A model generated the notes under the pieces. It made no database searches and had not been told where the DNA came from. It saw only the letters and a program-made list of their open reading frames with translations. A DNA stretch of 64,000 nucleotides from Rhodothermales bacterium (GTDB taxonomy: Bacteria; Bacteroidota; Rhodothermia; Rhodothermales; Bin80): assembly GCA_958296045.1 (NCBI GenBank), contig CATQHT010000003.1:2666814-2730813 (forward strand), in the 5' to 3' direction. Each line of letters opens with the position of its first letter. The first letter of the stretch is position 1. Positions 10,562 to 64,000 of this stretch are shown piece after piece. The translations under genes were made by a program, and so were the position numbers.

Positions 10562-10736
10562 GTCGGGCAGACTGAAACAGCGCTTTGGGCCCCAAGAGCT
10601 TCGGCGCCGGCGGGACAAACGCCCTTTCCCATGCGCGCAGCCATGCATGATGCCGCATGTAGACGGTATCGTGCCCTACCTGTCGTTCTGGTGATACGAC
10701 CGAATCAATCCATCACGTCAGGCTGGACTGCTGGGA

Positions 10737-10879
10737 ATCGCGGGTCTGTGCAGGGCCATGGCCTGCTTTGGGCCTGTAATCGTGCGCGAGCGCACGTTTA
10801 TAACCTATACGGCGCCGTTTTCGAACGTTTCCGCACGATTCGAACGTTTCCGCACGTTTCCGCACGTTTCCGCACGATT
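10737..10879. repeat. repeat module copy 1 (palindromes + iteron-like short tandem repeats)
   Basis: ATCGCGGGTCTGTGCAGGGCCATGGCCTG...CGTGCGCGAGCGCACG...TTCGAACGTTTCCGCACGATTCGAACGTTTCCGCACG, plus two extra TTTCCGCACG units. A near-identical copy lies about 265 bp downstream. Confidence 0.8.
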
Positions 10880-11001
10880 ACGTGCGCTGTGGTCTTACAG
10901 ATCCATGTAGGATTTTGGGTGGCACATCCCTCCGCGTTGGTGTACGTCTATGGCCTCTAATTGTGCGATAGCACACATTTATGACCAAGCGGAGGCTTGG
11001 T

Positions 11002-11126
11002 ATCGCGGGTCTGTGCAGGGCCATGGCCTGCCTTGGGCCTGTAATCGTGCGCGGGCGCACGTTTATAATCTATACGGCGCCGTTTTCGAACGTTTCCGCA
11101 CGATTCGAACGTTTCCGCACGATTAC
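11002..11126. repeat. repeat module copy 2
   Basis: Same module as 10737-10879 with a few substitutions. It lacks the two extra 10-bp TTTCCGCACG units. Confidence 0.8.
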
Positions 11127-27091: not shown

Positions 27092-27797
27092 GTGCGCCAG
27101 GCTAACTGGTGCCAGTACAGGGAGTGAAAGTCTCCCGATGTGAAGGACTAACCATCCACGCATCTCCTCGAGCCGTGCGTCGGTACCCGCGAGGGTGCAG
27201 GCGAAGCGTCGGTAGAGGTGCGGGTGGGCAGGGCTAATGAGCACCGAAAATGTCATCGTCCGGGACGCCGAGGGTTTCTTCGTGGTCGAAGGCAACACCT
27301 TCTTTGCCGTTAATGGTGAGGCGGAGGAGGGTCCCGCGGTGTCCAAGAACCCAGGCACGCACGTACGTACTGCATCGGGACCTGGGAGGTCTCTCCACTA
27401 CCCATCCCTTCGGGGAGGGTCGCCAAAGCGTAGGCTAAATGCCGATCGGAGGATGTACGGTGGAGAGAAGTCAGATGCGACCATAGTAGCTATGAAGCCA
27501 GCGAACAACGCGTGGATGACCACGGGGCGGAGCCGGTGGAGCCAAGGGTCGCACCCAAGGGGAAAGCGGGAAGCTGGATTCATGCCGGACTCTGGGCTGG
27601 ATTACGTGGATCTGTCCAAGAGCTGTGGACTCAGTGCCACAGTCGGGGCGCAGGTGTACCGCTTACGGCTGGAGGTGGGGTTTCCCCACTTCCTAACGTC
27701 ATGCGCGGGAGCGCGACCTGCGGGAAGAGCCGTGTGCGTTAACGCGCACGCACGGATCTGTGCGGGGCCCCAGGGGAAACCCTGGGGCTACCGCGAT
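27092..27797 (+). mobile_element. group II intron, ORF-less (intron-encoded protein deleted)
   Basis: 5' GUGCGCC. Domain V is at 27727-27758 (GAGCCGUGUGCGUUAACGCGCACGCACGGAUC, with the AGC triad and AC bulge). Domain VI is GCCCCAGGG-GAAA-CCCUGGGGC with an unpaired A at 27790, 7 nt before the 3' end ..AU. Removal leaves the exons in frame. Confidence 0.8.
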
Positions 27798-29729
27798 GGC
27801 GCCATCTGCCGAGTTCCGCTGGTAGGCGGTCGCTGTGAGCAGCTGACCACGCGTCCTGGGCACTACTTCACTCCTCGGTTCAGCCCAGACGGGTCCAAAA
27901 TCGTGTACCAGCGCGGCACCGGCAATGCGCTGCGCGGCACCCTACACGGGACAGATCCCGGCCTATACTGGATGGCATCTGATGGCAGCGCGCCGCACCT
28001 GATCACCGAATCTGGTGCCGATCCGCGCTTCGATGCCACAGGGGAGCGCATATACTTTATGGCGGGCGGTGGCCTTGAAAAGGAGTACCGCAGCATCAGC
28101 CTGCACGGCGCCGAGCCACGGGTGCACTTTACGCTGAAGTATCCGGCCGAGGTGGTGCCAAGCCCTGACGGCACGCTGGTGGCTTTCACGGAGCTATTCA
28201 ACGCGTACGTTGCGGCCTTTCCGGCAACAGGCGGCCCGGTGGCGCTGGCGAAGGATACCAAGGCGATACCGGTCCACCAGGTCAGCCGAGATGCTGGGAC
28301 GAGTATTCACTGGACTGAGCGCGGATTGCACTGGGTGCTGGGTCCACGATACTTCACCCATGATGTGCGCGGCGGATTCCCGGTTAGCGGTGCCGACAGC
28401 ACCGGGGTGCCGATAGGGCTGGTGGCCGCGTCGGATAGGGTGACTGGAGCCGTGGCGTTTACGGGTGCACAGGTCGTCACTATGCGAGGTGACGAGGTGC
28501 TACAGGATGCGACCGTAGTGGTAGAGGGCTCTCGTATCATTGCGATAGGCGCCGACGTCTCTATCCCCGAAGGCGCCTTGGTGATCGATGCTGCGGGCCA
28601 GACCATTCTCCCGGGCATCATTGATGCACATGCGCATGCCAGCCACTTCGTCAGCGGTCCATTGCCCCAGGAGAACTGGGCTTATTTGGCCAACTTGGCC
28701 TATGGCGTCACTACGGCGCATGACCCGAGTGCCAGCACCGCTACGGTCTTCACGCAGAGCGAGATGGTACGGGCCGGGTTGTTGACGGGGCCGCGCATCT
28801 TTTCGACGGGGACGATCCTTTACGGGGCAGACGGTGACTTCAAGGCGGTGGTCAACAGCTTAGACGATGCTCGGAGCCACCTTCGTCGGATGCAGGCGGT
28901 AGGTGCCTTCTCCGTCAAGAGTTACAACCAGCCGCGCCGCAACCAGCGGCAGCAGATCGTGCAGGCGGCCAGGGAGTTGAAGATGAACGTGGTGCCGGAA
29001 GGGGGATCTACCTTTTTCCACAACATCACCATGATCCTGGACGGCCATACGGGAATCGAGCACAACCTGCCGGTGGCGCCACTGTACCAGGATGTGCTGC
29101 GGCTGTGGGCTGCCACCGAGGTCGGGTACACGCCGACCTTGGTGGTCAGCTACGGTGGATTGTCTGGAGAGTTCTTCTGGTACCAGCGGGACAACGTGTG
29201 GGAAGATGAGCGCCTTCTGACCTTCGTTCCGCGCGGCATCGTGGATGCTCGCAGCCGGCGGCGCCTGATGGCGGATGCGGACGACTATTTCTATCTGGAA
29301 GTTGCGCGGCAGACGAAGAAGCTGGTCGATCAGGGAAACATCGTGCAGGTCGGGGCGCACGGCCAGATGCAGGGCATCGCGGCGCACTGGGAATTATGGA
29401 TGTTGCACCAGGGCGGCATGACCTCGCACGAAGCGCTGCGCAGCGCGACGCTGCATGGTGCCCAATACCTGGGGTTGGATCATGAGCTGGGCTCACTGGA
29501 GCCGGGAAAGCTCGCCGACCTGATGGTTATTGACGGGGACCCATTGACAGACCTTTACCAGTCTGTCAATGTGGCGCAGGTCATGGTCAACGGGCGTCTG
29601 TACGATGCGCGCACCATGGATCAGATCGGCAACCATCCCGCGCCGCGAGGCTCGCTGTACTGGGAACGGCATGAGGTGAGCGAAGAGCTGCTCGATCACG
29701 GCCCGGCGTGTGTGTGCGGCCGCCACTAG
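27798..29729 (+). pseudogene. TolB-like propeller/amidohydrolase gene, segment 3 of 3 (amidohydrolase domain)
   Basis: GAICRVPLVGG...FSPDGSKIVYQRG, then the metal-dependent hydrolase motifs PGIIDAHAHASH, GSTFFHNITMILDGHTGIEH, GAHGQMQG and KLADLMVIDGDPL. The 830-aa ORF in the track begins inside the intron. Confidence 0.85.
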
Positions 29730-29793
29730 GTTGGTACACGTCCCTCATATAGCCGCATGCTGGAGGACCATCAAGCAGCGCCCGACGCTAGAT

Positions 29794-30089
29794 GCCTGCG
29801 CTTTGTCTGCTCTATTGGCGACAGTGCTGTTCCGGTGCGACGCGTCGGAGTCTGAGGCGCAGCGCTTGCAGGCTGTTATGGCTCGGCGGTGTGCATCGTG
29901 GGTGGGGATGATCCCGGTGGTGCCGCAGACCAGAGCCTCAGGCGGGTGAACCCGGAGCCGGCGGAGCCAGCGGGCGGCGAGTACAGCGGTCGCGGCGGCA
30001 ATGGCCGTACAGGTTCAGCGCTGCACGCGTGATTTCAAAATGGTATACCTCGGCGACCGGGTCCTGGATGCGCGGATCACAGAATTCAA
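29794..30089. repeat. diverged duplicate of the fur 3' end and its downstream flank (copy A; contains a 3' fur pseudogene fragment at 29938-30089, minus strand)
   Basis: Aligns with 33077-33381. It encodes EFCDPRIQDPVAEVYHFEITRAALNLYGHCRRDRCTRRPLAPPAPGSPA, matching the C-terminus of the intact Fur-family gene. Confidence 0.85.
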
Positions 30090-30520
30090 CCGGCCTTCGC
30101 CGCAGCCGTTGACCGTGCCTTCTTTTCCCGTTAACGAGATTGAACAGGAGCTTAACTTGCTGATCGGTAACCATGCTGAATGCATGTTGACAGGTGAACA
30201 ATCCTGCCCGTAGATACGCATCTCACCGATTCCTTCCCCCGCAATTCTAGTTGTCGCCAACCGCAATTCTAATTGTCGCTGAACATACTTGCCGTGGCTG
30301 TGGAATTTACGGACGTACTCATCCTTCTGGCTAGCGTCCGACCGGTAGACGCTGGACTGACCGAGGACCAAAATTATGAAATGGATGTGCGTGAGGGCTG
30401 TATTGATTGCCACGGTCACACAGCGCCGCTACCCTGTTACCGCGCCTTCTGTAGGGATAGGGGAACGGAGTGCTCAAGGTGGGCAGGTGCCTGTTTCACT
30501 ATGGACCCGAATGACCCAGA
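30090..30520 (+). pseudogene. TnpB (IS200/IS605 OrfB) 3' fragment, multiply frameshifted
   Basis: Across frames it reads ..VDTHLTDSFPRNSSCRQ, then PRNSNCR and TCRGCG (zinc-finger CxxC). A 22-bp tandem duplication CCGCAATTCTAGTTGTCGCCAA/CCGCAATTCTAATTGTCGCTGA is present. The 24-mer CGCAATTCTAATTGTCGCTGAACA recurs inverted at about 37873-37897 inside the other tnpB remnant. Confidence 0.55.
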
Positions 30521-30550
30521 CCGTTATTGCGATGGCTGGTAGTGGTTACC

Positions 30551-31603
30551 ATGAAGATTAGCCTTATGAGCGCCTCACCACCGAGCCGTCGTGCTTTTCT
30601 GATCTGCGCGCTCTTGTTGGGCGTGGCGGTGACCTCTGGCGTGCGTGCGCAAGAATTGGCGCTGCCCGATTTGAAGCACTTCAAGAGGGTCCGTACGGTC
30701 ACCTTTGATGGGCCGGAGACGCTGCTGATTGCGCAGATCGAATACCTTGATATAGATGCGGCTGGTCGATTCCTTGTCACCGACATACTGGGTGAGCAGG
30801 TCTTGCTGTTTGACTCGACCGGCTCACTGCAGGCCTCATTGGATTCATCGGTTTGCGAACCAGGATTCACCTTTAGCCCTGAGAGTGCCCATTTTAGAGG
30901 TGATGAGTCCATCTTTGTCCTGAATAGTGGGGACCACTGGGGGTACCGATTCAACAAGGACGGCACATGCCTAGGCAAAGTCGATCGCGAGTTCGATAAT
31001 CCAAGGTTCCTCGCCATTGATCCAGCGGGCACGCTCTATGGCGCTTATGTCCGGCCGACCTTGGAAATGCGACGCATGAGCGCCACCGGGGAGACCCTTA
31101 GCAGCTTCTCAATCCCTAAAGGGGAGTTCCCTAATGCCAACAATCGTCTCGACGAGGGCGGTCTCGTTGCTGACGGAACGCATCTCTTCTACGCCGCGGC
31201 AACTGAGCCAGCGATAATGAAGTTCGCTTTGGATGGTACGCTTGTAGGAAGAATTTCGAAGCGCAGCTCATGGTTTCGCTCCCCCCGTCGGGATCTGCCG
31301 CGTGATCTTTCCCCAAAGCTGTTCGAAGCCCTTAGAGAATGGGAAAGCACTACCACAACGTGGAGCCTTTTTGAGCTCACAGACGAAACACTGCTGATTC
31401 AGTATTTCAGTGGTGAGCGCGGAATCGGGTATCAGGTGTTTTCCAAGGACGGCACCCTGGTTGCCGAAGAGCTAGACTATGGTCGCCGACCTATTGTACA
31501 TGGGGAAAACGGGCTGGTCTACTTCGTGATGCAACCCGGTCTAGACAGTCAGGGTGATTTGCCCAATCCTTATGTTGAAATCTACCGGTTTGTAGCGCCA
31601 TGA
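30551..31603 (+). CDS. secreted 6-bladed beta-propeller protein (BF3164/NHL-like family)
   Basis: Signal peptide MKISLMSASPPSRRAFLICALLLGVAVTSGVRA. Repeated blades include IDAAGRFLVTDILGEQVLLFDSTGSL, IFVLNSGDHWGYRFNKDGTCL, AIDPAGTLYGAY and HLFYAAATEPAIMKFALDGTLV. The family assignment is from memory only. Confidence 0.55.
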   Translation: MKISLMSASPPSRRAFLICALLLGVAVTSGVRAQELALPDLKHFKRVRTVTFDGPETLLIAQIEYLDIDAAGRFLVTDILGEQVLLFDSTGSLQASLDSSVCEPGFTFSPESAHFRGDESIFVLNSGDHWGYRFNKDGTCLGKVDREFDNPRFLAIDPAGTLYGAYVRPTLEMRRMSATGETLSSFSIPKGEFPNANNRLDEGGLVADGTHLFYAAATEPAIMKFALDGTLVGRISKRSSWFRSPRRDLPRDLSPKLFEALREWESTTTTWSLFELTDETLLIQYFSGERGIGYQVFSKDGTLVAEELDYGRRPIVHGENGLVYFVMQPGLDSQGDLPNPYVEIYRFVAP

Positions 31604-31722
31604 CGCACAATATCGTGCCATCTTCCATTAAGGCCGAGAGCCTCAAGGTCTTGGCCTTGGCCATACTCCTGGCATCGGGCGTCGCCTATCTGTTGCTTAT
31701 TGACAGCGTAGAACCGGCGTGA
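31600..31722 (+). CDS. possible 40-aa single-TM peptide, start overlaps the upstream stop (ATGA)
   Basis: My own translation: MTHNIVPSSIKAESLKVLALAILLASGVAYLLLIDSVEPA. It is below the ORF-track size cutoff. The ATGA overlap with the propeller gene suggests translational coupling. Confidence 0.3.
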   Translation: MTHNIVPSSIKAESLKVLALAILLASGVAYLLLIDSVEPA

Positions 31723-31740
31723 TCGAATGGTGCGCTTGGC

Positions 31741-32220
31741 ATGTACGCAGACGCCAGCACAGTGGACTCACTAAGGCGGGCGCTTGAGGGACGTACAGTT
31801 CCAGCTTTGCACGCCCATAGTGCCGTCACAGATCAGCGCAGCAACATTGATATGGCTGCCGTTGGGCTAATCATTCCGTTAGCAGTAAATACCTGCGCTC
31901 AGAAGCAGATCGAAGCACTAAAGAGGCTTCAGGCACTACAGGACGCTATCAGTGAGGAGGTCCCGGTGCACGTTGTTCTGGTGACTGATATTGACGCAGA
32001 AACCACTAGAATGCGAACCCTCCTCCTGCGCAAGGCAATACGACCAACCTTTGAATTGTGGCATACCAACGAGAGCCATCCCCTATATCGGGCTGTTCTG
32101 TCAGAGCAGTTAGCGCCAGTCCTAGTCGTCAGTGACAACATGGTTAGCAGCGTGTTCCACACCGTAGAACACAAGCGTATTGTGAGTACCGTTTCGTCTT
32201 TGCTGGCGACTTCGCCTTAG
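31741..32220 (+). CDS. hypothetical protein, possibly a thioredoxin-fold (TlpA-like) protein with degenerate CxxC (VNTC)
   Basis: 159-aa ORF. AAVGLIIPLAVNTCAQKQIEALKRL...PVLVVSDNMVSSVFH resembles the redoxin layout but keeps only one Cys. The assignment is weak. Confidence 0.35.
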   Translation: MYADASTVDSLRRALEGRTVPALHAHSAVTDQRSNIDMAAVGLIIPLAVNTCAQKQIEALKRLQALQDAISEEVPVHVVLVTDIDAETTRMRTLLLRKAIRPTFELWHTNESHPLYRAVLSEQLAPVLVVSDNMVSSVFHTVEHKRIVSTVSSLLATSP

Positions 32221-32414
32221 CTTAAGTTCATAGACCTTTGGGCTGTACGAGGGGCCACAACTCCTCTGGATTGTGCAGGGTAGCTGCAACTTCCTGACTT
32301 CCTCGGAATACGCACCCCCTTTCTTGGCAGCGAAACGATGCAGGCCTCCCTCTGTGCATCAGGCTTTTTCCCTCCCCTTGTGGCTGCGTCCTCGCTATCG
32401 AACTCAGAGACCGC

Positions 32415-33060
32415 CTACTGGGGCTGACAGGCTAGGAACCGCCCGCGTAGGAAGCTTCCGCTCGCTACTGGCGACCGCCCCTTGTTGGCCACGATGTTCC
32501 GGTACATGAGCCGTTTCCCGATCATCTGGGCCACGACGTGCTGAATCTGACCCATCGAGTCCAGTTCCTGGACGTTGCGCTGCCCCGCGAAGGCATTGAC
32601 GTAGGCCTGGAGGTGCTTCGGGCTGAGCCGGTGGTGGACCTCCTTGTGTGTCCGCTTCAGCATCGGCCAGAACGACTCGACCCCGTTCGTATGGATCGGC
32701 GCGCCTTCGAGATACCGGACGTATTCGGCGGCCGAGTGCTTCACTGTCTCGTGCTCCTCCGGTCCTCTTGTAGGCTGTCGCGTCGTCGGTGAAGAGCAGC
32801 GCGCCGGGAGCCGCGTGTTCGTCCACGAAGCCCTGTAGCGTCTCCCAGTTCAGGCGGTCAAGCAGCCGCCGCGGGTCTCCCCGTACTTGGCCCCGAGACC
32901 ACCGCGGCCTTCCCTATCGGACCCCGGCCCGCCCCTGCCGCTTCGAGTGGCTCATGTTCGCTCGCTTGCCGCCAATGTAGCACTCGTCCACCTCGACCGG
33001 CCCCTCGAAGCAGGGCCGCACCACGGCGAACACCTCCCGGATCCGATGTAGCATGGACCA
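32415..33060 (-). pseudogene. IS1595-family (ISXO2-like) transposase, N-terminally truncated and frameshifted
   Basis: Across frames it reads VEVDECYIGGKRANMSHSKR, ALLFTDDATAYKR, and EYVRYLEGAPIHTNGVESFWPMLKRTHKEVHHRLSPKHLQAYVNAFAGQRN...GKRLMYRNIV. Confidence 0.75.
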
Positions 33061-33076
33061 GGCGGACCGCTGTCCA

Positions 33077-33381
33077 GCCTGCGCTTGGTCTGCGCTACTG
33101 GCGACAGCGTTGCACAGGTGCGCCGCGTCGGAGTATGAGCCGTAAAGCCTGCGGGCTGCTATGGCCCGGCGATATGCACCGTGGGTGGGGATGATCCCGG
33201 CGGTGCCGCGAACCAGCGCCTCAGGCGGGTGAACCCGGAGCCGGCGAAGCCAGCGGGCGGCGAGTGCACCGGTCGCGGCGGCAATGGCCGTACAGGTTTA
33301 GCGCCGCACGCGTGATTTCAAAATGGTATACCTCGGCGACCAAGTCCTGGATGCGCTGGATGCGCGGATCACAGAATTCAA
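33077..33381. repeat. fur 3' end and downstream flank (copy B, part of the intact gene)
   Basis: Partner of 29794-30089. In the roughly 150-nt coding part I count 7 mismatches plus a 9-bp indel. The non-coding part is visibly more diverged. Confidence 0.85.
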
Positions 33382-33715
33382 GCACCTCCTGGCAGTCAAG
33401 ACAGATCAGGTGGTCATGCTGCCGGTAGCGTAACGACGGCTCGTACTTAGCACCGTGCTCACCGAATTGATGCCTCACCACCAAGTCGCACGCCAAAAGG
33501 AGGTTCAGCGTGTTGTAAACGGTCGCGCGACTGATGGTGCGCTCCTGTTGCTGCAGCCGATCATACAGCGCATCCGCGTCCGTGTGACCGTCCATCGCGT
33601 AGAGCGCATCAAGCACCTGAAACCGTTCGGGCGTCTGACGCAGACCTTGCTGCCGCAGGTAGCTCTGAAAACGCTCTTTGGCTTCCTCGCGATGGCTGGC
33701 TGGGTGCGACCGCAC
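33221..33715 (-). CDS. fur: Fur-family transcriptional regulator
   Basis: LRQTPERFQVLDALYAMDGHTDADALYDRLQQQERTISRATVYNTLNLL (winged helix), then HDHLICLDCQEVLEF and GHCRRDRC metal sites. The 283-aa ORF in the track is over-extended; I propose a GTG start at 33715 (164 aa). Metal specificity is unknown. Confidence 0.8.
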   Translation of the reverse strand: MRSHPASHREEAKERFQSYLRQQGLRQTPERFQVLDALYAMDGHTDADALYDRLQQQERTISRATVYNTLNLLLACDLVVRHQFGEHGAKYEPSLRYRQHDHLICLDCQEVLEFCDPRIQRIQDLVAEVYHFEITRAALNLYGHCRRDRCTRRPLASPAPGSPA

Positions 33716-37705: not shown

Positions 37706-38828
37706 TCAGTTCGTGGGGCTTCCCGCCTCTCGCAGGAGCATAGCGCCTCTGAAAATAATATTGATCGAGGCATACAGGTAACGACCAATAGCCTTTGCGC
37801 AACGATTGCACATGTACTTCCTTACCTGCAGCGTGATGTTCTCAGCGGGTAGTCGTCTGCAGCCACTATACTGTTGTTCAGCGACAATTAGAATTGCGGG
37901 GCGGCATGTGCACGAAGGTGCCCTCTCGCTCTGTTTTATAGGTAAGTGGTTGTATTACCAGCCCCAAGGCTTGGTCCAGTATGGTACGGTTCTGACCACG
38001 CTTGCGAGCGCCCCCATTGCGGGTCAGGTTGGCATCCTGCAGGTCTTCGCATGCAACGGTGCCGGTCTCCCAATCGATATCCGCTGTGATGTTGGGTCCC
38101 GTTGCATTGCGGTGCGATCCTGAAGGATTCCCTGTATCCAGCTACCTTGGCCTTCTCCCTGTACTTGCTTTTTCCTGAGTGCACGTCATCCTGCGTGGCC
38201 ACTTGATGCCCTTGCGTTCATCCGAACGTAAGGGCACGTACTGCACGCCCTTGTGCCACGTGCAATGAGCCTTCAGGCCAGGATCGATGCCAATAGGTCT
38301 GTCCTCGCACGACCCTTCGGCTAAGACTTCCTGCTCGTAGATTACCTGTACCTCAATGCCGCTGCTAACCGGAATGCGCTTTGTCCGCACATGTCTTACC
38401 GGGACATCGTTTCAAGAGGTCGCAGTAGTCGTCAAAGTACAGCTTGTCGACACGCTTCACCTGACCGACCACTTGCCGTTTTGCTCCTGCTGCACTTCCT
38501 GCTGTTCGAAGGTGATGACGTACTCGCCAAACCTGGGAAATTTGCCCAATGGCTTGAGAGCCTGCGTCTAGCCTCTTCAAACCCGACGACCCACACTCCA
38601 CTGCGCCCTACGTGCAAAGCTGGCTTCATAGTCCGGTCCTTTGACCAATATCTTCAGCCACCTGCACGGGTCATAGTCACTCAGACGCTTTTCGCCCTGC
38701 CTATACCGGGCCTAGCAATACCCCTTCATCTGGTCGTGCAGCGACCTCAGGTGGCTCCAGTAATGGCCAAGCTCGGCTCGTTTGGCCTTACTTAGTCCGG
38801 TGACACGATAGGTCCGCGTCTTCACCAT
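37706..38828 (-). pseudogene. TnpB (IS200/IS605 OrfB, RNA-guided nuclease family), multiply frameshifted
   Basis: Pieces across frames: MVKTRTYRVTGLSKAKRAELGHYW, RPIGIDPGLK, GKSKYREKAKVAG, ARKRGQNRTILDQALG..YKTEREGTFVHMPPRNSNCR, YMCNRCAKAIGRYLYASINIIFRG. No intact frame and no adjacent tnpA. Confidence 0.65.
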
Positions 38829-39011
38829 GCTAAGGCGTCCAACGATCACATCGCACCAGAGCACCATGGTCCTGTCAGTTGATACACATAATTCCCAGGT
38901 AAGGACGAATAGCTAGGGGCTATCTCACGCCTGCCTTGGAGTAGCCTTCTTGACAAGCCAAGCCGTAGCCAATCTCCTCGTCTGGATGAGTAGGCGCGCT
39001 GCAGATCTAGC

Positions 39012-39527
39012 CTACAGGCGCGTGGCCTGCTCCAGATAAAAATAAATCCCTGCTATTACGCCGATGGCGGAGATGACCGAGAATCCGATACCGATCAGCC
39101 ATTTGGTCAAGCGAAACTGCCTATCGGTCATCTGCATTAATGTGGTAAGCTGGTTTTGTTGGGCATCGAACTTGGTAGTCATCTCCGCTTTCTGAGCATC
39201 GAACTTGGTAGTCATCTCCGCTTGCTGGGCATCCAACTTGGCAGTTACCTCCGCTTTATGGGCGTCGAACTTGGTAGTTATTTCTGTCCTAAGCGCAGCT
39301 ATCTGGGCATCGAACTTGGTAGTCATTTCTGTCCTAAGCGCAGCTATCTGGGCATTTAGGGCCTCTAATTTCGTTTCGAAGCGGTGAATGAGCTTGGCGG
39401 AAGCCATCTTTTCCAAGAGCTTGATCAGTAGGTGAGCGTCTCGTCCGCTGCTGCCGGAACGTCGGAGAAGGTCGAAAAGTAGCGCGCCGTCAGGATCCTG
39501 GTGTCCGCTGTGTTGGTCGTCGGGCAA
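39012..39527 (-). CDS. tail-anchored coiled-coil protein (DUF1640-like), array copy 1, 171 aa
   Basis: ALLFDLLRRSGSSGRDAHLLIKLLEK, then two 15-residue and three 11-residue repeats (Q[KQ]AE[MV]T[TA]K[FL]DA), then the C-terminal TM LIGIGFSVISAIGVIAGIYFYL. This copy has a TTG start. Confidence 0.7.
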   Translation of the reverse strand: MPDDQHSGHQDPDGALLFDLLRRSGSSGRDAHLLIKLLEKMASAKLIHRFETKLEALNAQIAALRTEMTTKFDAQIAALRTEITTKFDAHKAEVTAKLDAQQAEMTTKFDAQKAEMTTKFDAQQNQLTTLMQMTDRQFRLTKWLIGIGFSVISAIGVIAGIYFYLEQATRL

Positions 39528-39731
39528 GCATGCTCTCTACCGTCAGCAGCAACGGTGGTTCCGCAGCGTGGACAAGCCAATGTGGTGAATCCAACGGTGC
39601 TGCGTATATCCACGCAAAACGGCCAGTGGGTCCGACGGAATTCTGCCACCTGATCCGAGATATATCTACCCCTGGCTGCATCCTGGTCAGGGTGCGTATG
39701 ATGATCTGCCAGAAGGGCGAAATGGGGCAGG

Positions 39732-40115
39732 TTATATCGGGTCACTGCTGGCTATCGCGGGAATGGCGGGCCCTTCTGTGGTGCGCTGCCAAAGTACGGC
39801 TTCATTGGGACGCGTCACACACTGTGATAGCCGAACAGGGCAAGGCATCGGTGTTGTTCTGCCGTTGGAAGGGGGGCTTGCGGGCGAATCTGACACATCA
39901 TAATGCGGCTCCAGAAGGAAAAACATCGCCAGCGAAGCCAAAGACGCCAGGAGGCCCCCGGCCACAGTCACCGCAAGCCCCCACAAGAAGTCTCCCCCGT
40001 CAGGTAACACCAGAAGCGGCAGCATGGCAGCTGCCACCGAGGCGAGCGCGGCCTTGCTTAGTCCGGCGACACCATAGGTCTGCGTCCTCACCATGCCAAG
40101 GTGTCCAACGATCAC
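39732..40115 (-). CDS. possible small 2-TM membrane protein whose first ~15 codons derive from tnpB (array copy 1, stop lost)
   Basis: MVRTQTYGVAGLSKAA (compare tnpB MVKTRTYRVTGLSKAK), then LASVAAAMLPLLVL and LWGLAVTVAGGLLASLASLAMFFLL. Coding status is uncertain. Confidence 0.25.
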   Translation of the reverse strand: MIVGHLGMVRTQTYGVAGLSKAALASVAAAMLPLLVLPDGGDFLWGLAVTVAGGLLASLASLAMFFLLEPHYDVSDSPASPPSNGRTTPMPCPVRLSQCVTRPNEAVLWQRTTEGPAIPAIASSDPI

Positions 40116-40280
40116 ATCCGCACCTGAGTACCATGATCCTGTCAGCTGGCAAACTATAATTCCCAGGTAACGACCAATAGCTGGGGGCTATCTCACGCTT
40201 ATCTTGGAGTAGCCTTCTTGACAAGCCAAGCCGCAGCCAATCTCCTCGTCTGGATGAGTTAGGCGCGCTGCAGACCTAGC

Positions 40281-40763
40281 CTACAGGCGCGTGGCTTGCT
40301 CCAGGTAAAAGTAAATTCCTGCTATCACGCCGATGGCGGAGATGACCGAGAATCCGATACCGATCAGCCATTTGGTCAAGCGAAACTGCCTATCGGTCAT
40401 CTGCATTAATGTGGTAAGCTGGTTTTGTTGGGCATCGAACTTGGCAGTCATCTCCGCTTTCTGGGCATCCAACTTGGCAGTTACCTCCGCTTTCTGGGCA
40501 TCGAACTTGGTAGTTATTTCTGTCCTAAGCGCGGCTTTCTGGGCATCGAACTTGGTAGTTATCTCTGCCCTAAGCGCAGCTATCTGGGCATTTAGGGCCT
40601 CTAATTTCGTTTCGAAGCGGTGAATGAGCTTGGCGGAAGCCATCTTTTCCAAGAGCTTGATCAGTAGGTGAGCGTCTCGTCCGCTGCTGCCGGAACGTCG
40701 GAGAAGGTCGAAAAGTAGCGCGCCGTCAGGATCCTGGTGCTCGCTGTGTTGGACGTCGGACAT
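40281..40763 (-). CDS. tail-anchored coiled-coil protein (DUF1640-like), array copy 2, 160 aa
   Basis: Same architecture as copy 1 with two 11-residue repeats. ATG start. Confidence 0.75.
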   Translation of the reverse strand: MSDVQHSEHQDPDGALLFDLLRRSGSSGRDAHLLIKLLEKMASAKLIHRFETKLEALNAQIAALRAEITTKFDAQKAALRTEITTKFDAQKAEVTAKLDAQKAEMTAKFDAQQNQLTTLMQMTDRQFRLTKWLIGIGFSVISAIGVIAGIYFYLEQATRL

Positions 40764-41093
40764 GCATGCTCTCTACCGTCAGCAGCAACGGTGGCTCCGC
40801 AGCGTGGACATACCAATGTGGTGAATCCAAAGGTGCTGCGTATATCCACGCAAAACGACCAGTGGGTCCGACGGAATTCTGCCACCTGGTCCGAGATATA
40901 TCTACCCCTGGCTGCATCCTGGTCAGGGTGCGTATGATGACCTGCTAGAAGGGCGATATGGGGCAGGTTATATCGGGTCACTGCTGGCTATCGCGGGAAT
41001 GGCGAGCCCTTCTGTGGTGCGCTGCTAAAGTACGGCTTCATTGGGACGCGTCACACACTGTGATAGCCGAACATGGCAAGGCATCGGTGTTGT

Positions 41094-41351
41094 TCAGCCG
41101 TTGGAAGGGGGGCTTGCGGGCGAATCTGACACATCATAATGCGGCTCCAGAAGGAAAAACATCGCCAGCGAAGCCAAAGCCGCCAGGAGGCCCCCGGCCA
41201 CAGTCACCGCAAGCCCCCACAAGAAGTCTCCCCCGTCAGGTAACACCAGAAGCGGCAGCATGGCAGCTGCCACCGAGGCGAGCGCGGCCTTGCTTAGTCC
41301 GGCGACACCATAGGTCTGGGTCCTCACCATGCCAAGGTGTCCAACGATCAC
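41094..41351 (-). CDS. possible small 2-TM membrane protein (array copy 2, 85 aa)
   Basis: Same as 39732-40115 but ends ...SPPSNG*. The unit-3 counterpart (42255-42570) needs a frameshift. Confidence 0.3.
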   Translation of the reverse strand: MIVGHLGMVRTQTYGVAGLSKAALASVAAAMLPLLVLPDGGDFLWGLAVTVAGGLLAALASLAMFFLLEPHYDVSDSPASPPSNG

Positions 41352-41516
41352 ATCCGCACCTGAGTACCATGATCCTGTCAGCTGGCAAACTATAATTCCC
41401 AGGTAACGACCAATAGCTGGGGGCTATCTCACGCTTATCTTGGAGTAGCCTTCTTGACAAGCCAAGCCGCAGCCAATCTCCTCGTCTGGATGAGTTAGGC
41501 GCGCTGCAGACCTAGC

Positions 41517-41966
41517 CTACAGGCGCGTGGCTTGCTCCAGGTAAAAGTAAATCCCTGCTATCACGCCGATGGCGGAGATGACCGAGAATCCGATACCGAT
41601 CAGCCATTTGATTAAGCGAAACTGCCTATCGGTCATCTGCATTAATGTGGTAAGCTGGTTTTGTTGGGCATCGAACTTGGCAGTTACCTCCGCTTTATGG
41701 GCATCGAACTTGGTAGTTATTTCTGTCCTTAGCGCAGCTATCTGGGCATCGAACTTAGTAGTCATCTCTGTCCTTAGCGCAGCTATCTGGGCATTTAGGG
41801 CCTCTAATTTCGTTTCGAAGCGGTGAATGAGCTTGGCGGAAGCCATCTTTTCCAAGAGCTTGATCAATAGGTGAGCATCTCGTCCGCTGCTGCCAGACCG
41901 CCGGAGAAGGTCGAAAAGTAGCGCGCCGTCAGGATCCTGGTGCTCGCTGTGTTGGTCGCCGGACAT
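41517..41966 (-). CDS. tail-anchored coiled-coil protein (DUF1640-like), array copy 3, 149 aa
   Basis: Same architecture with one 11-residue repeat. The N- and C-terminal parts are nearly identical to copies 1 and 2, although the flanking DNA is much more diverged. Confidence 0.75.
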   Translation of the reverse strand: MSGDQHSEHQDPDGALLFDLLRRSGSSGRDAHLLIKLLEKMASAKLIHRFETKLEALNAQIAALRTEMTTKFDAQIAALRTEITTKFDAHKAEVTAKFDAQQNQLTTLMQMTDRQFRLIKWLIGIGFSVISAIGVIAGIYFYLEQATRL

Positions 41967-42665
41967 GCATGCCTTCTACCGTCAGCAGCAATGGTGGTTC
42001 CGTAGCGTGGACAAGCCAATGTGGTGAATCCAAAGGTGCAGCGTATTTCCATGCAAAACGACCAGTGGATCCGATTCAATGCGGCCACCTGATCCGAGAT
42101 ATATCGACCACTGGCTGCATCCTGTTCGGGGTACGTAGGATGATCTGCCAGATGGGCAGGTTGGGGCAAGTTGTATCGGGTCACTATTCGCTATCGCGCG
42201 TGTTGGCGGACCCCTCTCTGGTGCGCTGCCAAAATACAGCTTCATTGGGACGCGTCACACACTGTGATAGCCGAACAGGGCAAGGCCTCGGTGTTGTTCA
42301 GCCGTTGGAAGGGACACTTGCGGGCGAATATGGCACACCCAGCCGCGGCCGCAGAAAAGATAACATCGCCACCAAAGCCAGAGGCGACAGGAGCGTGGAC
42401 GCCAGGAGTCCCCAGTCACAGTCATCGCGAGGCCCCCATCCCCCATGGAGAAGTCGCCCTCGTCCAGAAACACCAGAAGCAGCAGCATGGCAACCACCGA
42501 GGCGATCGTGGCGGCTTTGCGTCCTGCCATCCAGCTTTCTGTCAGGGTCACCACACCCGGAACGGACCACCGGGCAGGATAAGTCCCAGCCCTCTGGCCT
42601 GAGCGCCAGGAATGCTCAAATCGGAACCAACAGACGCGGAAGGGGAGGCCCCTATGTAAGCCAGC

Positions 42666-62148: not shown

Positions 62149-62427
62149 ATCGACGTCGAGTCTGCGCTAAGGACGCTGGAGCTTCGCGAAGCGTACATCG
62201 GCCGCTCTTGCTTCGCTGCAGGCCGCAAGTATCCGCTGATCCAGATCGACCACAGGTTTGACCGGACGCCCGAGCGTGTCAGACAAATCATTGAGCAAGC
62301 TGTGCGCAAGGTCCGCCCTATGGCGTATGCCCAGCGGTGGATGCGCCGGTCTATCCTGTTGGTCCAGGCGCAGCAGGGCCGTGCCGTGCAGCGTGCCTCC
62401 AGGATGCGTAAGCGCATCTGGCAGATC
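62149..62427 (+). pseudogene. scrambled sigma-70 gene debris (region 4 fragment joined to a region 2.4/3.0 fragment)
   Basis: Within ORF 62053-62481, IDVESALRTLELREAYIGRSCFAAGRKYPLIQIDHRFDRTPERVRQIIEQAVRKVR aligns to region 4 of the downstream sigma genes. It is followed directly by AYAQRWMRRSILLVQAQQGRAV, which aligns to [22 protein letters not shown]. Confidence 0.6.
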
Positions 62428-62492
62428 GCAGAGATGGCGTCAAACACGGTGTGCCATCGGTTGAAAACACCTCTTGTCTGACCTGTCGTCCT

Positions 62493-63341
62493 ATGCCCAG
62501 GTTTGTTCCACGTCGCCAGCGGATGCTGAATCAGTATCTGAAAGAGATAGGTAAAATCAAGCTGGTGACCCCTGCCGAGGAGGCAGAGCTGGCATACAGA
62601 ATTCGACAGGGTGATGACGACGCGCTCGAGAAGCTGGTCCAGGCCAACCTGCGCTTTGTGGTATCCGAAGCCAAACACTACCAGGGGCAGGGGCTGCACC
62701 TGACCGACCTGATCAACGAAGGCAACTACGGCCTAATCAAGGCGGCTACGCGTTTTGATGAGACGCGTGGCTTCAAATTTATCTCGTATGCGGTGTGGTG
62801 GATACGCCAGTCTATCCTTAAAGCGTTAGCGGAGCAGGGGCGTGTAGTGCGGCTTCCGCTTAACCGCATCGGGATCATCCTCAAGATGCGCAAGGCTAGT
62901 GCACGACTGGCGCAGGAGAAAGAGCGCCGGCCCAGCTGCGAGGAGCTGGCCGGTGAGCTGGATGTCGGGGTGGACAAGATACGGGACGCCATGCAGCATA
63001 CGGCACGGCACTTATCTATGGATGCGCCCTTTAGTGACGAAGGCGACAACAGCCTTCTGGATGTGCTGCCGAACAATGAGACCATTGCGCCCGATGCCCC
63101 GCTGCACGATGAGTCCATAGAGATCGCCATAGAGGTTGCACTGGGGATGCTCGAGCCCCGCGAAGCAGAAATCGTCCGCCTCAGCTTCGGCATCGGCCGC
63201 GAACATCCGCTAACTCTCGACGAAATCGGGCAACGGTTCGACCTGACGCGCGAGCGTGTCAGACAGATTCGGGAGAAGGCCTTTAGTAAGCTCCGCAAAC
63301 AGCGCACGATGCTTCGCCACAGCTCAGAATTGTATGGCTAG
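62493..63341 (+). CDS. RNA polymerase sigma-70 factor (short Bacteroidetes-type RpoD-like), copy 1
   Basis: Regions 1.2 to 4 are present: [71 protein letters not shown] and TLDEIGQRFDLTRERVRQIREKAFSKLR. Confidence 0.9.
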   Translation: MPRFVPRRQRMLNQYLKEIGKIKLVTPAEEAELAYRIRQGDDDALEKLVQANLRFVVSEAKHYQGQGLHLTDLINEGNYGLIKAATRFDETRGFKFISYAVWWIRQSILKALAEQGRVVRLPLNRIGIILKMRKASARLAQEKERRPSCEELAGELDVGVDKIRDAMQHTARHLSMDAPFSDEGDNSLLDVLPNNETIAPDAPLHDESIEIAIEVALGMLEPREAEIVRLSFGIGREHPLTLDEIGQRFDLTRERVRQIREKAFSKLRKQRTMLRHSSELYG

Positions 63342-63389
63342 GTTTCGGCTGAAGTCCACCAGTCCTCTCTCTACTCGCCCCGCCGTCTT

Positions 63390-64000
63390 ATGCCCATGTT
63401 CGTTCCGCGTCGCCAGCGGATGCTGGATCAGTACCTTAAAGAGATCGGCCAGATCGAGCTGGTAACCCCATCACAAGAAGCTGAACTGGCACGCAGAATC
63501 AAGCAAGGCGATGATGATGCGCTTGAGAAGCTGGTCCAGGCCAACCTGCGTTTTGTGGTTTCCGTGGCCAAGCGGTACCAAGGGCAAGGGCTGCATCTGA
63601 CTGACCTGATCAATGAAGGCAACTACGGTCTTATCAAGGCGGCCAAGCGCTTTGATGAGACGCGCGGCTTCAAGTTTATCTCGTATGCGGTGTGGTGGAT
63701 ACGGCAGTCCATCTTGCAGGCTCTGGCGGAGCAGGGGCGTGTGGTACGGCTCCCGCTTAATCGCATCGGCATTATCAGCAAGATCCGGAAGACCAGTGCA
63801 CGGCTCGCGCAACAGAAGGAGCGTATGCCCAACTACGAGGAGCTGGCCAACGAGCTGAATATCGGGGTGGACAAGATTCGCGAGGCCATGCAGCACACAG
63901 CACGGCACCTGTCGATGGATGCGCCCTTTAACGACGAAGACGACAACAGCCTTTTGGATGTACTGCCGAGCAATGAGACTATCGCACCCGATGTCCCGCT
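63390..64000 (+). CDS. RNA polymerase sigma-70 factor, tandem paralog copy 2 (3' end beyond the window)
   Basis: My own translation: [112 protein letters not shown]... It is open to the window end, so it is absent from the ORF track. Confidence 0.85.

Follow-up and report, generated by a model that had tools for sequence, protein, structure and literature searches.

A 3-kb islet between two diverged copies of the fur 3' end in a Rhodothermales genome, a candidate case of gene-end displacement by incoming DNA

Why should the end of a gene that is itself intact occur a second time, 3 kb away, in a diverged form and attached to unrelated DNA? The locus of the iron regulator gene fur in a Rhodothermales bacterium (assembly GCA_958296045.1, contig CATQHT010000003.1) raises this question. 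We read the source genome through a 64-kb window, the whole stretch of 64,000 nt to which positions refer below unless another record is named. Within it, 29794-30089 and 33077-33381 are two direct copies of a segment of ~300 nt, in which, on the minus strand, a Fur-family reading frame comes to its end and a 144-nt non-coding flank follows, and an islet of about 3 kb lies between them. The reading that we place first, although we hold it tentatively and at somewhat less than an even chance, is that the 3' end of fur was displaced through recombination with incoming DNA carrying the fur allele of a sister lineage. Duplication in place comes second in our ranking, and the remnant of an integrase-driven element comes third.

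The two copies are clearly related and clearly diverged. Repeat finding aligned 29794-30073 with 33077-33356 over 280 nt at 89% identity, and gapped blastn of the copies gave 305 columns at 86.6% identity (E = 1.8e-103). The coding parts (29938-30089 and 33221-33381; 50 versus 53 codons, plus the stop codon) differ by seven substitutions and one 9-bp indel, whereas the non-coding flanks are mismatched at 25 of 144 positions, a divergence of 17%. Divergence declines toward fur, from ~20% in the distal 100 nt through ~10% in the next 40 nt and 4.6% in the coding part to 0% in the last 26 nt. These last positions form a block of 100% identity (30064-30089 and 33356-33381) at the right-hand, fur-internal edge of each copy. 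The block is a candidate crossover or core region, which is suggestive only, as the chance of such a run is by our estimate ~0.3 at a synonymous divergence (dS) of ~0.13. Both outer junctions of the repeat are sharp, and so is the one at 30089/30090. An earlier note on this DNA, made without database searches, had described the two direct copies, counted the seven mismatches and the 9-bp indel, seen more divergence in the non-coding part and concluded that this is no fresh target duplication. The repeat search and blastn agree with it on the copies, and its counts are exact. A transposase target-site duplication would be 2-15 bp long, identical, and abutting terminal inverted repeats (TIRs); it is excluded by the length and divergence of the repeat (296-305 bp, 87-89% identical), and the insert ends do not coincide with the termini of an insertion sequence (IS). 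Rfam returned nothing on the region at E <= 1, and neither copy gave a folding signal over the 147 nt that comprise the fur stop codon and the flank (z = -0.6 and -0.9).

Comparison with related genomes reveals the arrangement that preceded the islet. A Fur scan of species-representative genomes yielded 53 loci, the closest of them from Rhodothermales metagenome-assembled genomes with 74-78% protein identity, and the neighboring genes in the window were placed on the relatives' loci by tblastn. The conserved backbone in the relatives consists of genes for a protein with a type IX secretion system (T9SS) tail, a DedA protein and a tetratricopeptide repeat (TPR) protein, followed by fur. In 17 related loci, including the closest three (L001-L003), fur and a gene encoding a PD40-propeller/amidohydrolase protein are adjacent and convergent and have no insert between them; in L001-L003 and in L005 the two stop codons overlap (TTAGTG), leaving zero spacer. 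These 17 loci thus show that 30090-33076 (2,987 nt) is an insertion. The earlier note had expected exactly this ancestral state, fur convergent with the amidohydrolase gene and no insert, from a synteny check.

The right copy forms the 3' end of a complete fur gene. The left copy starts abruptly at codon ~113 (EFCD...), where it is joined to unrelated sequence, and at its other end it adjoins the native neighbor, with the amidohydrolase stop at 29729 following after 64 nt; NCBIfam gives it a weak Fur C-terminal match only. At the indel site all relatives read ...DPRIQRIQD(L/M)V..., and the right copy, with RIQRIQ and DLV, retains the ancestral form, because RIQRIQ stands there in every relative. 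The left copy bears an in-frame 9-bp deletion (RIQRIQ to RIQ, one unit of a CTGGATGCG tandem being lost) and an L-to-P replacement, both derived with respect to the right copy and all relatives. By this comparison the left copy is shown to be a displaced, decaying fragment, and the right copy to be the one that completes the working fur. Polarizing the seven substitutions with outgroups gave no answer as to which copy is the resident one, the outgroups being too distant. The copies have derived states in common that are absent from all relatives, namely EITRAAL (EIKRHAL in relatives), the tail RRPLA[S/P]PAPGSPA and the 144-nt flank. They are each other's closest known relatives, and these shared states argue for a donor, if any, from a very close sister lineage, in keeping with the need for a homologous anchor. 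The closest other Fur found by protein search is 76% identical, and those in the species-representative genomes are at most 78% identical. A metagenome scan with a 20-mer from the flank returned five chance matches with no further similarity. The Fur tail and the 208-nt spacer between the amidohydrolase gene and the fur stop (29730-29937) have no counterpart in the closest relatives and predate the duplication.

The structure of the left copy also bears on whether the repeat is real. The source appears to be a single metagenome-assembled contig of 2.88 Mb, and assemblers are known to produce serial false duplications at structural variants; in principle, strains with and without the islet could have contributed one haplotype each of the fur region, the two then being stitched together in series. 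We find this scarcely credible. A haplotype join would not give a left copy that breaks off within fur and continues in unrelated sequence, and a difference of 11-13% between the copies is far above the strain variation that assemblers collapse or chain. Moreover, the 3.6-kb structure is shorter than one long read, assuming a long-read assembly like that of related records.

Most coding differences between the copies are silent. We counted 4.5 synonymous versus 2.5 non-synonymous differences (dS 0.13, non-synonymous divergence [dN] 0.023, dN/dS 0.18, from seven sites only). If the left copy had been a freely drifting pseudogene, ~8-12 non-synonymous differences would by our estimate be expected against the 2.5 observed, with a Poisson P of ~0.001-0.05 that varies with the neutral estimate. 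The excess of synonymous differences favors alleles that diverged while functional over duplication in place, although at seven sites it is not decisive. The order of parts observed here (gene 5' part, 3' end in use, cargo, orphan 3' end, native neighbor) is the order expected of C-terminal displacement. We infer that the right copy came in from outside, that the two copies diverged in separate genomes and that recombination of the following type brought them together. DNA of a very close sister lineage would have brought in a fur allele together with the 144 nt downstream of it and ~3 kb of debris from mobile elements, the latter made up of a 5'-truncated IS1595 element, a two-gene cassette for a propeller and a thioredoxin-fold protein, and an unassignable scrap (Table 1). 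A single crossover within fur, either at the 26-nt identical block or upstream of it, would have linked the resident 5' part of the gene with the incoming 3' end. At its far end, the incoming DNA would have been attached ahead of the resident 3' end, by an illegitimate join or, had the DNA been a circle, by the other half of a Campbell-type single crossover. The product would be the resident fur 5' part with the incoming fur 3' end, now in use, followed by the islet, the resident fur 3' fragment and the amidohydrolase gene. Fur would have stayed functional, and the redundant resident fragment would have begun to decay through the 9-bp deletion and the L-to-P change.

Table 1. Features of the fur locus and its islet, in window coordinates
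Feature	Position	Strand	Description and evidence
PD40 beta-propeller/amidohydrolase gene, C-terminal exon	27801-29729	+	Pfam Amidohydro_1/3 and PD40; 80% identical gene adjoins fur in L001-L003 and 14 other loci
Left copy of the repeat	29794-30089	-	5'-truncated fur 3' fragment at 29938-30089 (50 codons plus stop); flank at 29794-29937 (144 nt)
Unassignable scrap	30090-30565	+	22-nt tandem near-repeat; ~32-nt patch at 30252-30285 that matches part of a decayed tnpB (37875-37906, opposite strand) exactly or almost exactly
Cargo gene 1	30566-31603	+	Intact and called in the source genome; 345-aa exported protein with N-terminal SRRAFL-type signal; predicted six-bladed NHL-type beta-propeller
Cargo gene 2	31600-32220	+	Gene for a ~206-aa membrane-anchored one-cysteine thioredoxin-fold protein (TlpA/ResA/peroxiredoxin-like), broken by an in-frame TGA at 31720-31722
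IS1595-family transposase remnant	32415-33076	-	Partial PF12762 and NF033547; residues ~100-298 of the 298-aa transposase at L054
Right copy of the repeat	33077-33381	-	3' end of working fur at 33221-33381 (53 codons plus stop); flank at 33077-33220 (144 nt)
Complete fur	33221-33715	-	164 aa; PF01475, E = 3.4e-29, profile positions 2-121 of 121; same sequence as a protein called on a 2.88-Mb contig

The borders of the islet are formed by debris. The truncated IS1595 transposase that the earlier note had placed at the right border is borne out by matches to PF12762 and NF033547 and by alignment with an intact IS of a relative (L054). In a tblastx comparison with that IS the remnant runs from 33072 to 32487 in frames 0, 0, 1, 0, 2 and 2, with at least three frame changes. 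It is without the N-terminal zinc ribbon (the first ~100 codons) and the left inverted repeat, it is cut at most 4 nt from the boundary 33076/33077, and no terminal inverted repeat was recognized in it. Because the transposase is cut at about residue 100, the right junction is an arbitrary breakpoint and not a transposon end. The tnpB 3' fragment that had been proposed for the left border did not hold up. Pfam scans of stitched and six-frame translations of the scrap found no TnpB (PF07282), integrase or other domain, tblastn gave nothing below E = 0.18 when a relative's TnpB fragment was the query, and by local DNA alignment the only significant similarity is the ~32-nt patch (25 nt of it exact) listed in Table 1. 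The decayed tnpB that shares this patch is frameshifted, lies at ~37740-38700 on the minus strand (PF07282, E = 5e-4 on the stitched translation) and adjoins the conserved gene for the T9SS-tailed protein. A single tnpB split by an inversion between 30.26 kb and 37.9 kb was considered and rejected, since the copy at 37.7-38.7 kb runs through its own zinc ribbon.

Could the islet instead be what is left of an integrase-driven element, of the e14/phage-21 type or a cis-mobilizable element (CIME)? A CIME is an att-flanked, integrase-less derivative of an integrative element. The element would have had its att site in fur and brought its own replacement 3' end, the 26-nt block would be the att core, and the integrase would later have been deleted together with most of the element. 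The anatomy matches that of icd, e14 and icdC point by point, the cargo homologue at L054 sits among an integrase fragment and relaxase/MobC genes, and a deletion that removed int could have left its scar in the cut of IS1595 precisely where the repeat begins. Against this, no tyrosine or serine recombinase, excisionase or remnant of either was found in the islet ORFs (open reading frames) or in six-frame translations of its unassigned stretches, and 2,987 bp leaves no room for one. The 144-nt flank homology also exceeds the need of an attP, and a search of viral contigs for a phage attP yielded no viral contig with a Fur relative.

A second case of the same topology speaks to this question as well. 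In an independent Rhodothermales genome (L008; OZ242367.1, 10199-16760), two and a half tandem units of 2.33 kb (~6 kb in all) lie behind an intact fur, and after them come a copy of the fur 3' end and the native neighbor fabF. The cargo differs from that of the window: the units hold genes for AAA/STAND-type ATPases and, as judged by eye, an apparent transposase C-terminal fragment. The fur copy is 97-99% identical and extends from ~residue 73 to ~275 nt beyond the stop codon. The internal breakpoint therefore lies at ~residue 73 in L008 versus ~113 in the window, and the two have no common core; among 33 Rhodothermales fur loci, no second fur-derived repeat other than that of L008 was found. 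Each of these observations tells against an integrase and its conserved core, and we consider a stripped integrative element improbable. The same topology with a different breakpoint fits better with a homology-anchored, non-site-specific process than with a conserved att site. Taking the window and L008 as independent cases, one might go further and propose that in Rhodothermales cassettes without a recombinase land preferentially at the fur 3' end, always bringing or regenerating the gene end, with a trans-acting recombinase or RNA-guided nuclease homing tied to nearby tnpB debris as the possible means, and that these are not two unrelated accidents. We regard this extension as very doubtful.

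The region downstream of fur varies across Rhodothermales, with the amidohydrolase gene or fabF among the neighbors. A class-V aminotransferase/PAPS-reductase/GmrSD set follows fur in L023, feoB in L024, and DUF4143 or STAND ATPases in L025 and L008. A gene resembling a DUF559 endonuclease lies 40 nt 3' of fur in L016 (10532-11269), between 110-nt direct repeats that are 96% identical and each contain a 32-nt palindrome. In L004 (10886-12736) and L007 (10679-12543) an unannotated gene pair stands between fur and fabF, encoding proteins of 392-396 aa and of 149-216 aa; the smaller protein has one cysteine motif, 'STCG'. This pair loosely resembles the cargo pair of the islet, and homology between them proved unsupported (hhalign probability 1.3%, BLASTP E = 0.013).

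The cargo of the islet consists of two genes. The earlier note had counted three; the 40-aa and 159-aa ORFs lie in one frame with a single TGA between them, and homologues of 203-204 aa span both. The first cargo gene has no match in Pfam or NCBIfam. Its homologues number 39 among 5.8 billion clustered proteins, all from Rhodothermales-type assemblies. The propeller assignment comes from an AlphaFold (AF2) model built from 32 sequences (pLDDT 89.5), for which the best Foldseek matches are the Brat/TRIM NHL domains (E ~1e-13). The second gene would encode an N-terminal membrane helix and a soluble domain, with one invariant cysteine, and 19 representatives of its family were found among 1.84 billion proteins. 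An AF2 model of the soluble domain (pLDDT 91) gives Foldseek matches to thioredoxin folds at E ~1e-6, near TlpA/ResA and one-cysteine peroxiredoxins. Selenocysteine at the TGA was considered and rejected, as the stop falls within a variable linker in which every homologue lacks cysteine.

Relatives of the cargo keep company with mobile elements. In L056 and L057 several copies of the pair, propeller gene plus small membrane/thioredoxin-fold gene, lie among IS4-type transposases, downstream of a conserved block of PorZ, ribH, PHP and LPG-synthase genes. At L054 a cargo homologue stands beside an intact IS1595 copy, with a second IS1595 copy 4 kb away, and also present in the locus are IS3 and ISL3 transposases, relaxase/MobC genes and fragments of a tnpB and of an integrase. 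The islet has the look of a fragment torn from an IS-rich locus of the L054/L056/L057 type. The cargo belongs to a small, Rhodothermales-only family that is multi-copy in relatives and not exotic. The two IS1595 copies at L054 (OZ244626.1, 9198-10469 and 13432-14702) are both intact, ~1.27 kb long and 97% identical, with inverted repeats of ~27-32 nt and 8-bp target duplications, and an IS4 element lies in the same patch.

With the borders and cargo described, the strongest competitor of displacement by incoming DNA can be weighed. A single replication or repair accident could have copied ~3 kb of IS-rich DNA into fur and resumed 296 nt behind, through two template switches of the microhomology-mediated break-induced replication (MMBIR) or fork stalling and template switching (FoSTeS) type, or through fill-in of a long staggered break. 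The copies would have been identical at first and then diverged, the coding part more slowly through gene conversion from the working copy. Template switching with two events predicts arbitrary breakpoints in decayed elements, such as are found at both insert ends; L008 has the same topology with copies that are 97-99% identical; the islet visibly shows its age, with three or more frame changes in the IS and with gene 2 broken by a nonsense codon; the copies share every lineage-specific derived state; and the divergence gradient toward fur fits gene conversion. On the other side stand the non-synonymous changes, too few for free drift, and the 9-bp deletion, which gene conversion of that strength should also have repaired. 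Among the homologues listed, moreover, no second copy of cargo gene 1 on the source contig offers a template, and at 17% neutral divergence the 300-bp direct repeats, 3 kb apart, would have had to survive for long without deletion of the islet. On balance we hold duplication in place to be unlikely, if a serious contender.

Several points weigh against displacement by incoming DNA, which we nevertheless prefer. The test for selection draws on seven substitutions, and within the coding part the binomial P is just 0.07-0.10. A gradient of divergence toward fur would also be produced by gene conversion between copies made in place, and the decay within the islet (the IS frameshifts and the nonsense codon of gene 2) would fit an old resident insertion equally well. 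The preferred reading further needs a prior junction in the donor, with truncated IS1595 abutting the fur flank, that it leaves unexplained. Finally, the collections searched contained no same-species or same-genus empty site or donor genome, which counts against it as regards the direction and recency of transfer. The earlier note had seen the footprint of recombination with a diverged allele carrying extra DNA; the insertion relative to the ancestral state and the dN/dS of 0.18 fit that proposal, and its allele component depends on a test of seven sites (P = 0.001-0.10).

The composition of the islet sets its cargo apart from the surrounding genes. G+C content (GC) is 54.2% at 30090-32414 versus 59.6% in the window, and 0.3% of equal-sized windows are as low. 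GC at third codon positions (GC3) is 0.56-0.60 in the cargo versus 0.68-0.75 in the flanking genes, and in tetranucleotide distance the cargo falls in the top 6%. A GC and tetranucleotide profile, the check that the earlier note had proposed, thus finds the cargo to deviate from background. Other parts of the window deviate more (38-40 kb and 7-9 kb). The description of the insert as AT-richer applies to the cargo part and not to the IS1595 remnant, which is GC-rich (65.7%). Lower GC and GC3 than in the flanks notwithstanding, to call the DNA foreign-looking is an overstatement, given a cargo family that is confined to Rhodothermales and multi-copy in relatives, and a donor that would in any case have been very close.

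Elsewhere in the window, a group II intron of ~700 nt (27092-27792, plus strand) without a maturase frame splits the PD40-propeller/amidohydrolase gene. It is recognized by Rfam models RF02005 at 27127-27351 (168 bits) and RF00029 at 27725-27797, starts with GTGCG and ends with CTAC; the relatives of the gene are uninterrupted. The most deviant tetranucleotide composition in the window belongs to three tandem units of ~1.24 kb at 38780-42600 (85-97% identical), each encoding a coiled-coil protein of 149-171 aa with a C-terminal membrane helix and a 106-aa ORF. Two 130-nt direct repeats at 10730-11124, 95% identical and 265 nt apart, lie in a stretch of lower GC (8.5-12.5 kb, 0.53-0.58). Diverged direct repeats at 62245-63678 (300 nt at 82% and 72 nt at 72% identity, spaced ~900-980 nt) suggest tandem paralogous genes.

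The locus provides a clean natural example, from a poorly studied phylum, of accessory DNA entering at the end of a regulator gene without inactivating it, with a leftover fragment as the record of the event. It also allows a two-gene cassette found only in Rhodothermales to be recognized, one that pairs a predicted exported NHL propeller with a membrane-anchored one-cysteine thioredoxin-fold protein and travels with IS elements. For annotation, 29938-30089 should be treated as a pseudogene, the 40-aa and 159-aa ORFs as one broken gene, and the region downstream of fur as a variable spot in Rhodothermales. The value of the case is mainly of this kind, and it opens no new question.

Among known systems, the closest in anatomy is e14 (with phage 21), which integrates at the 3' end of icd in E. 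coli and leaves the icdC pseudogene (PMC13626634, citing Hill et al. 1989). When we aligned icd and icdC of E. coli K-12, the repeat measured 165 nt at ~93% identity, with the core at the gene-internal edge, mostly silent changes and homology reaching ~55 nt beyond the stop codon. As at icd, the incoming DNA would have supplied fur with its last ~50 codons in diverged form, the working gene would be a chimera, and the resident 3' end would have been displaced to the far end as a fragment; both systems have an identical block at the gene-internal edge, mostly silent differences and homology past the stop. The differences are considerable. While e14 is 15.2 kb long, encodes intE and xisE and excises, the fur islet has 3 kb, no recombinase and broken IS ends, and its repeat is longer and more diverged (296-305 nt at 87-89%, against 165 nt plus terminator at ~93%).

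Comparison with other routes of insertion places the islet further. In Campbell-type integration of a circle by a single crossover, as here, the homology is duplicated as direct repeats, leaving one intact gene and one 5'-truncated copy. Unlike in that case, no plasmid, circle, or replication or mobilization function is evident in the islet, and a circle with a 300-bp fur fragment between broken IS elements would be left unexplained. The likeness to the IS1595 family lies in the right-hand 660 nt, which encode the C-terminal part of an ISXO2-like DDE transposase. An intact IS1595 element has a zinc ribbon and DDE domain, TIRs and an 8-bp target duplication; the frameshifted remnant cannot have made a 300-bp duplication.

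C-terminal displacement that leaves orphan 3' fragments is described for the loci of rhs, contact-dependent inhibition (CDI) and type VI secretion system (T6SS) effectors, where homology-facilitated illegitimate recombination (HFIR) has been proposed as the route (PMC5361080; HFIR reviewed in PMC3240628). As in those systems, a conserved 5' part would serve at fur as the homologous anchor, the incoming module would bring a new 3' end together with cargo, and the old 3' end would be kept downstream as an orphan that opens with a conserved stretch. In the rhs, CDI and T6SS systems toxin tips are diversified and selection maintains the immunity genes, whereas at fur both 3' ends encode nearly the same protein. 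Displacement would thus have brought no gain at fur itself, as a by-product of cargo acquisition, and there is no array of multiple orphans. On our best reading, the islet is a further example of a known phenomenon, the displacement of a gene's 3' end on integration of accessory DNA.

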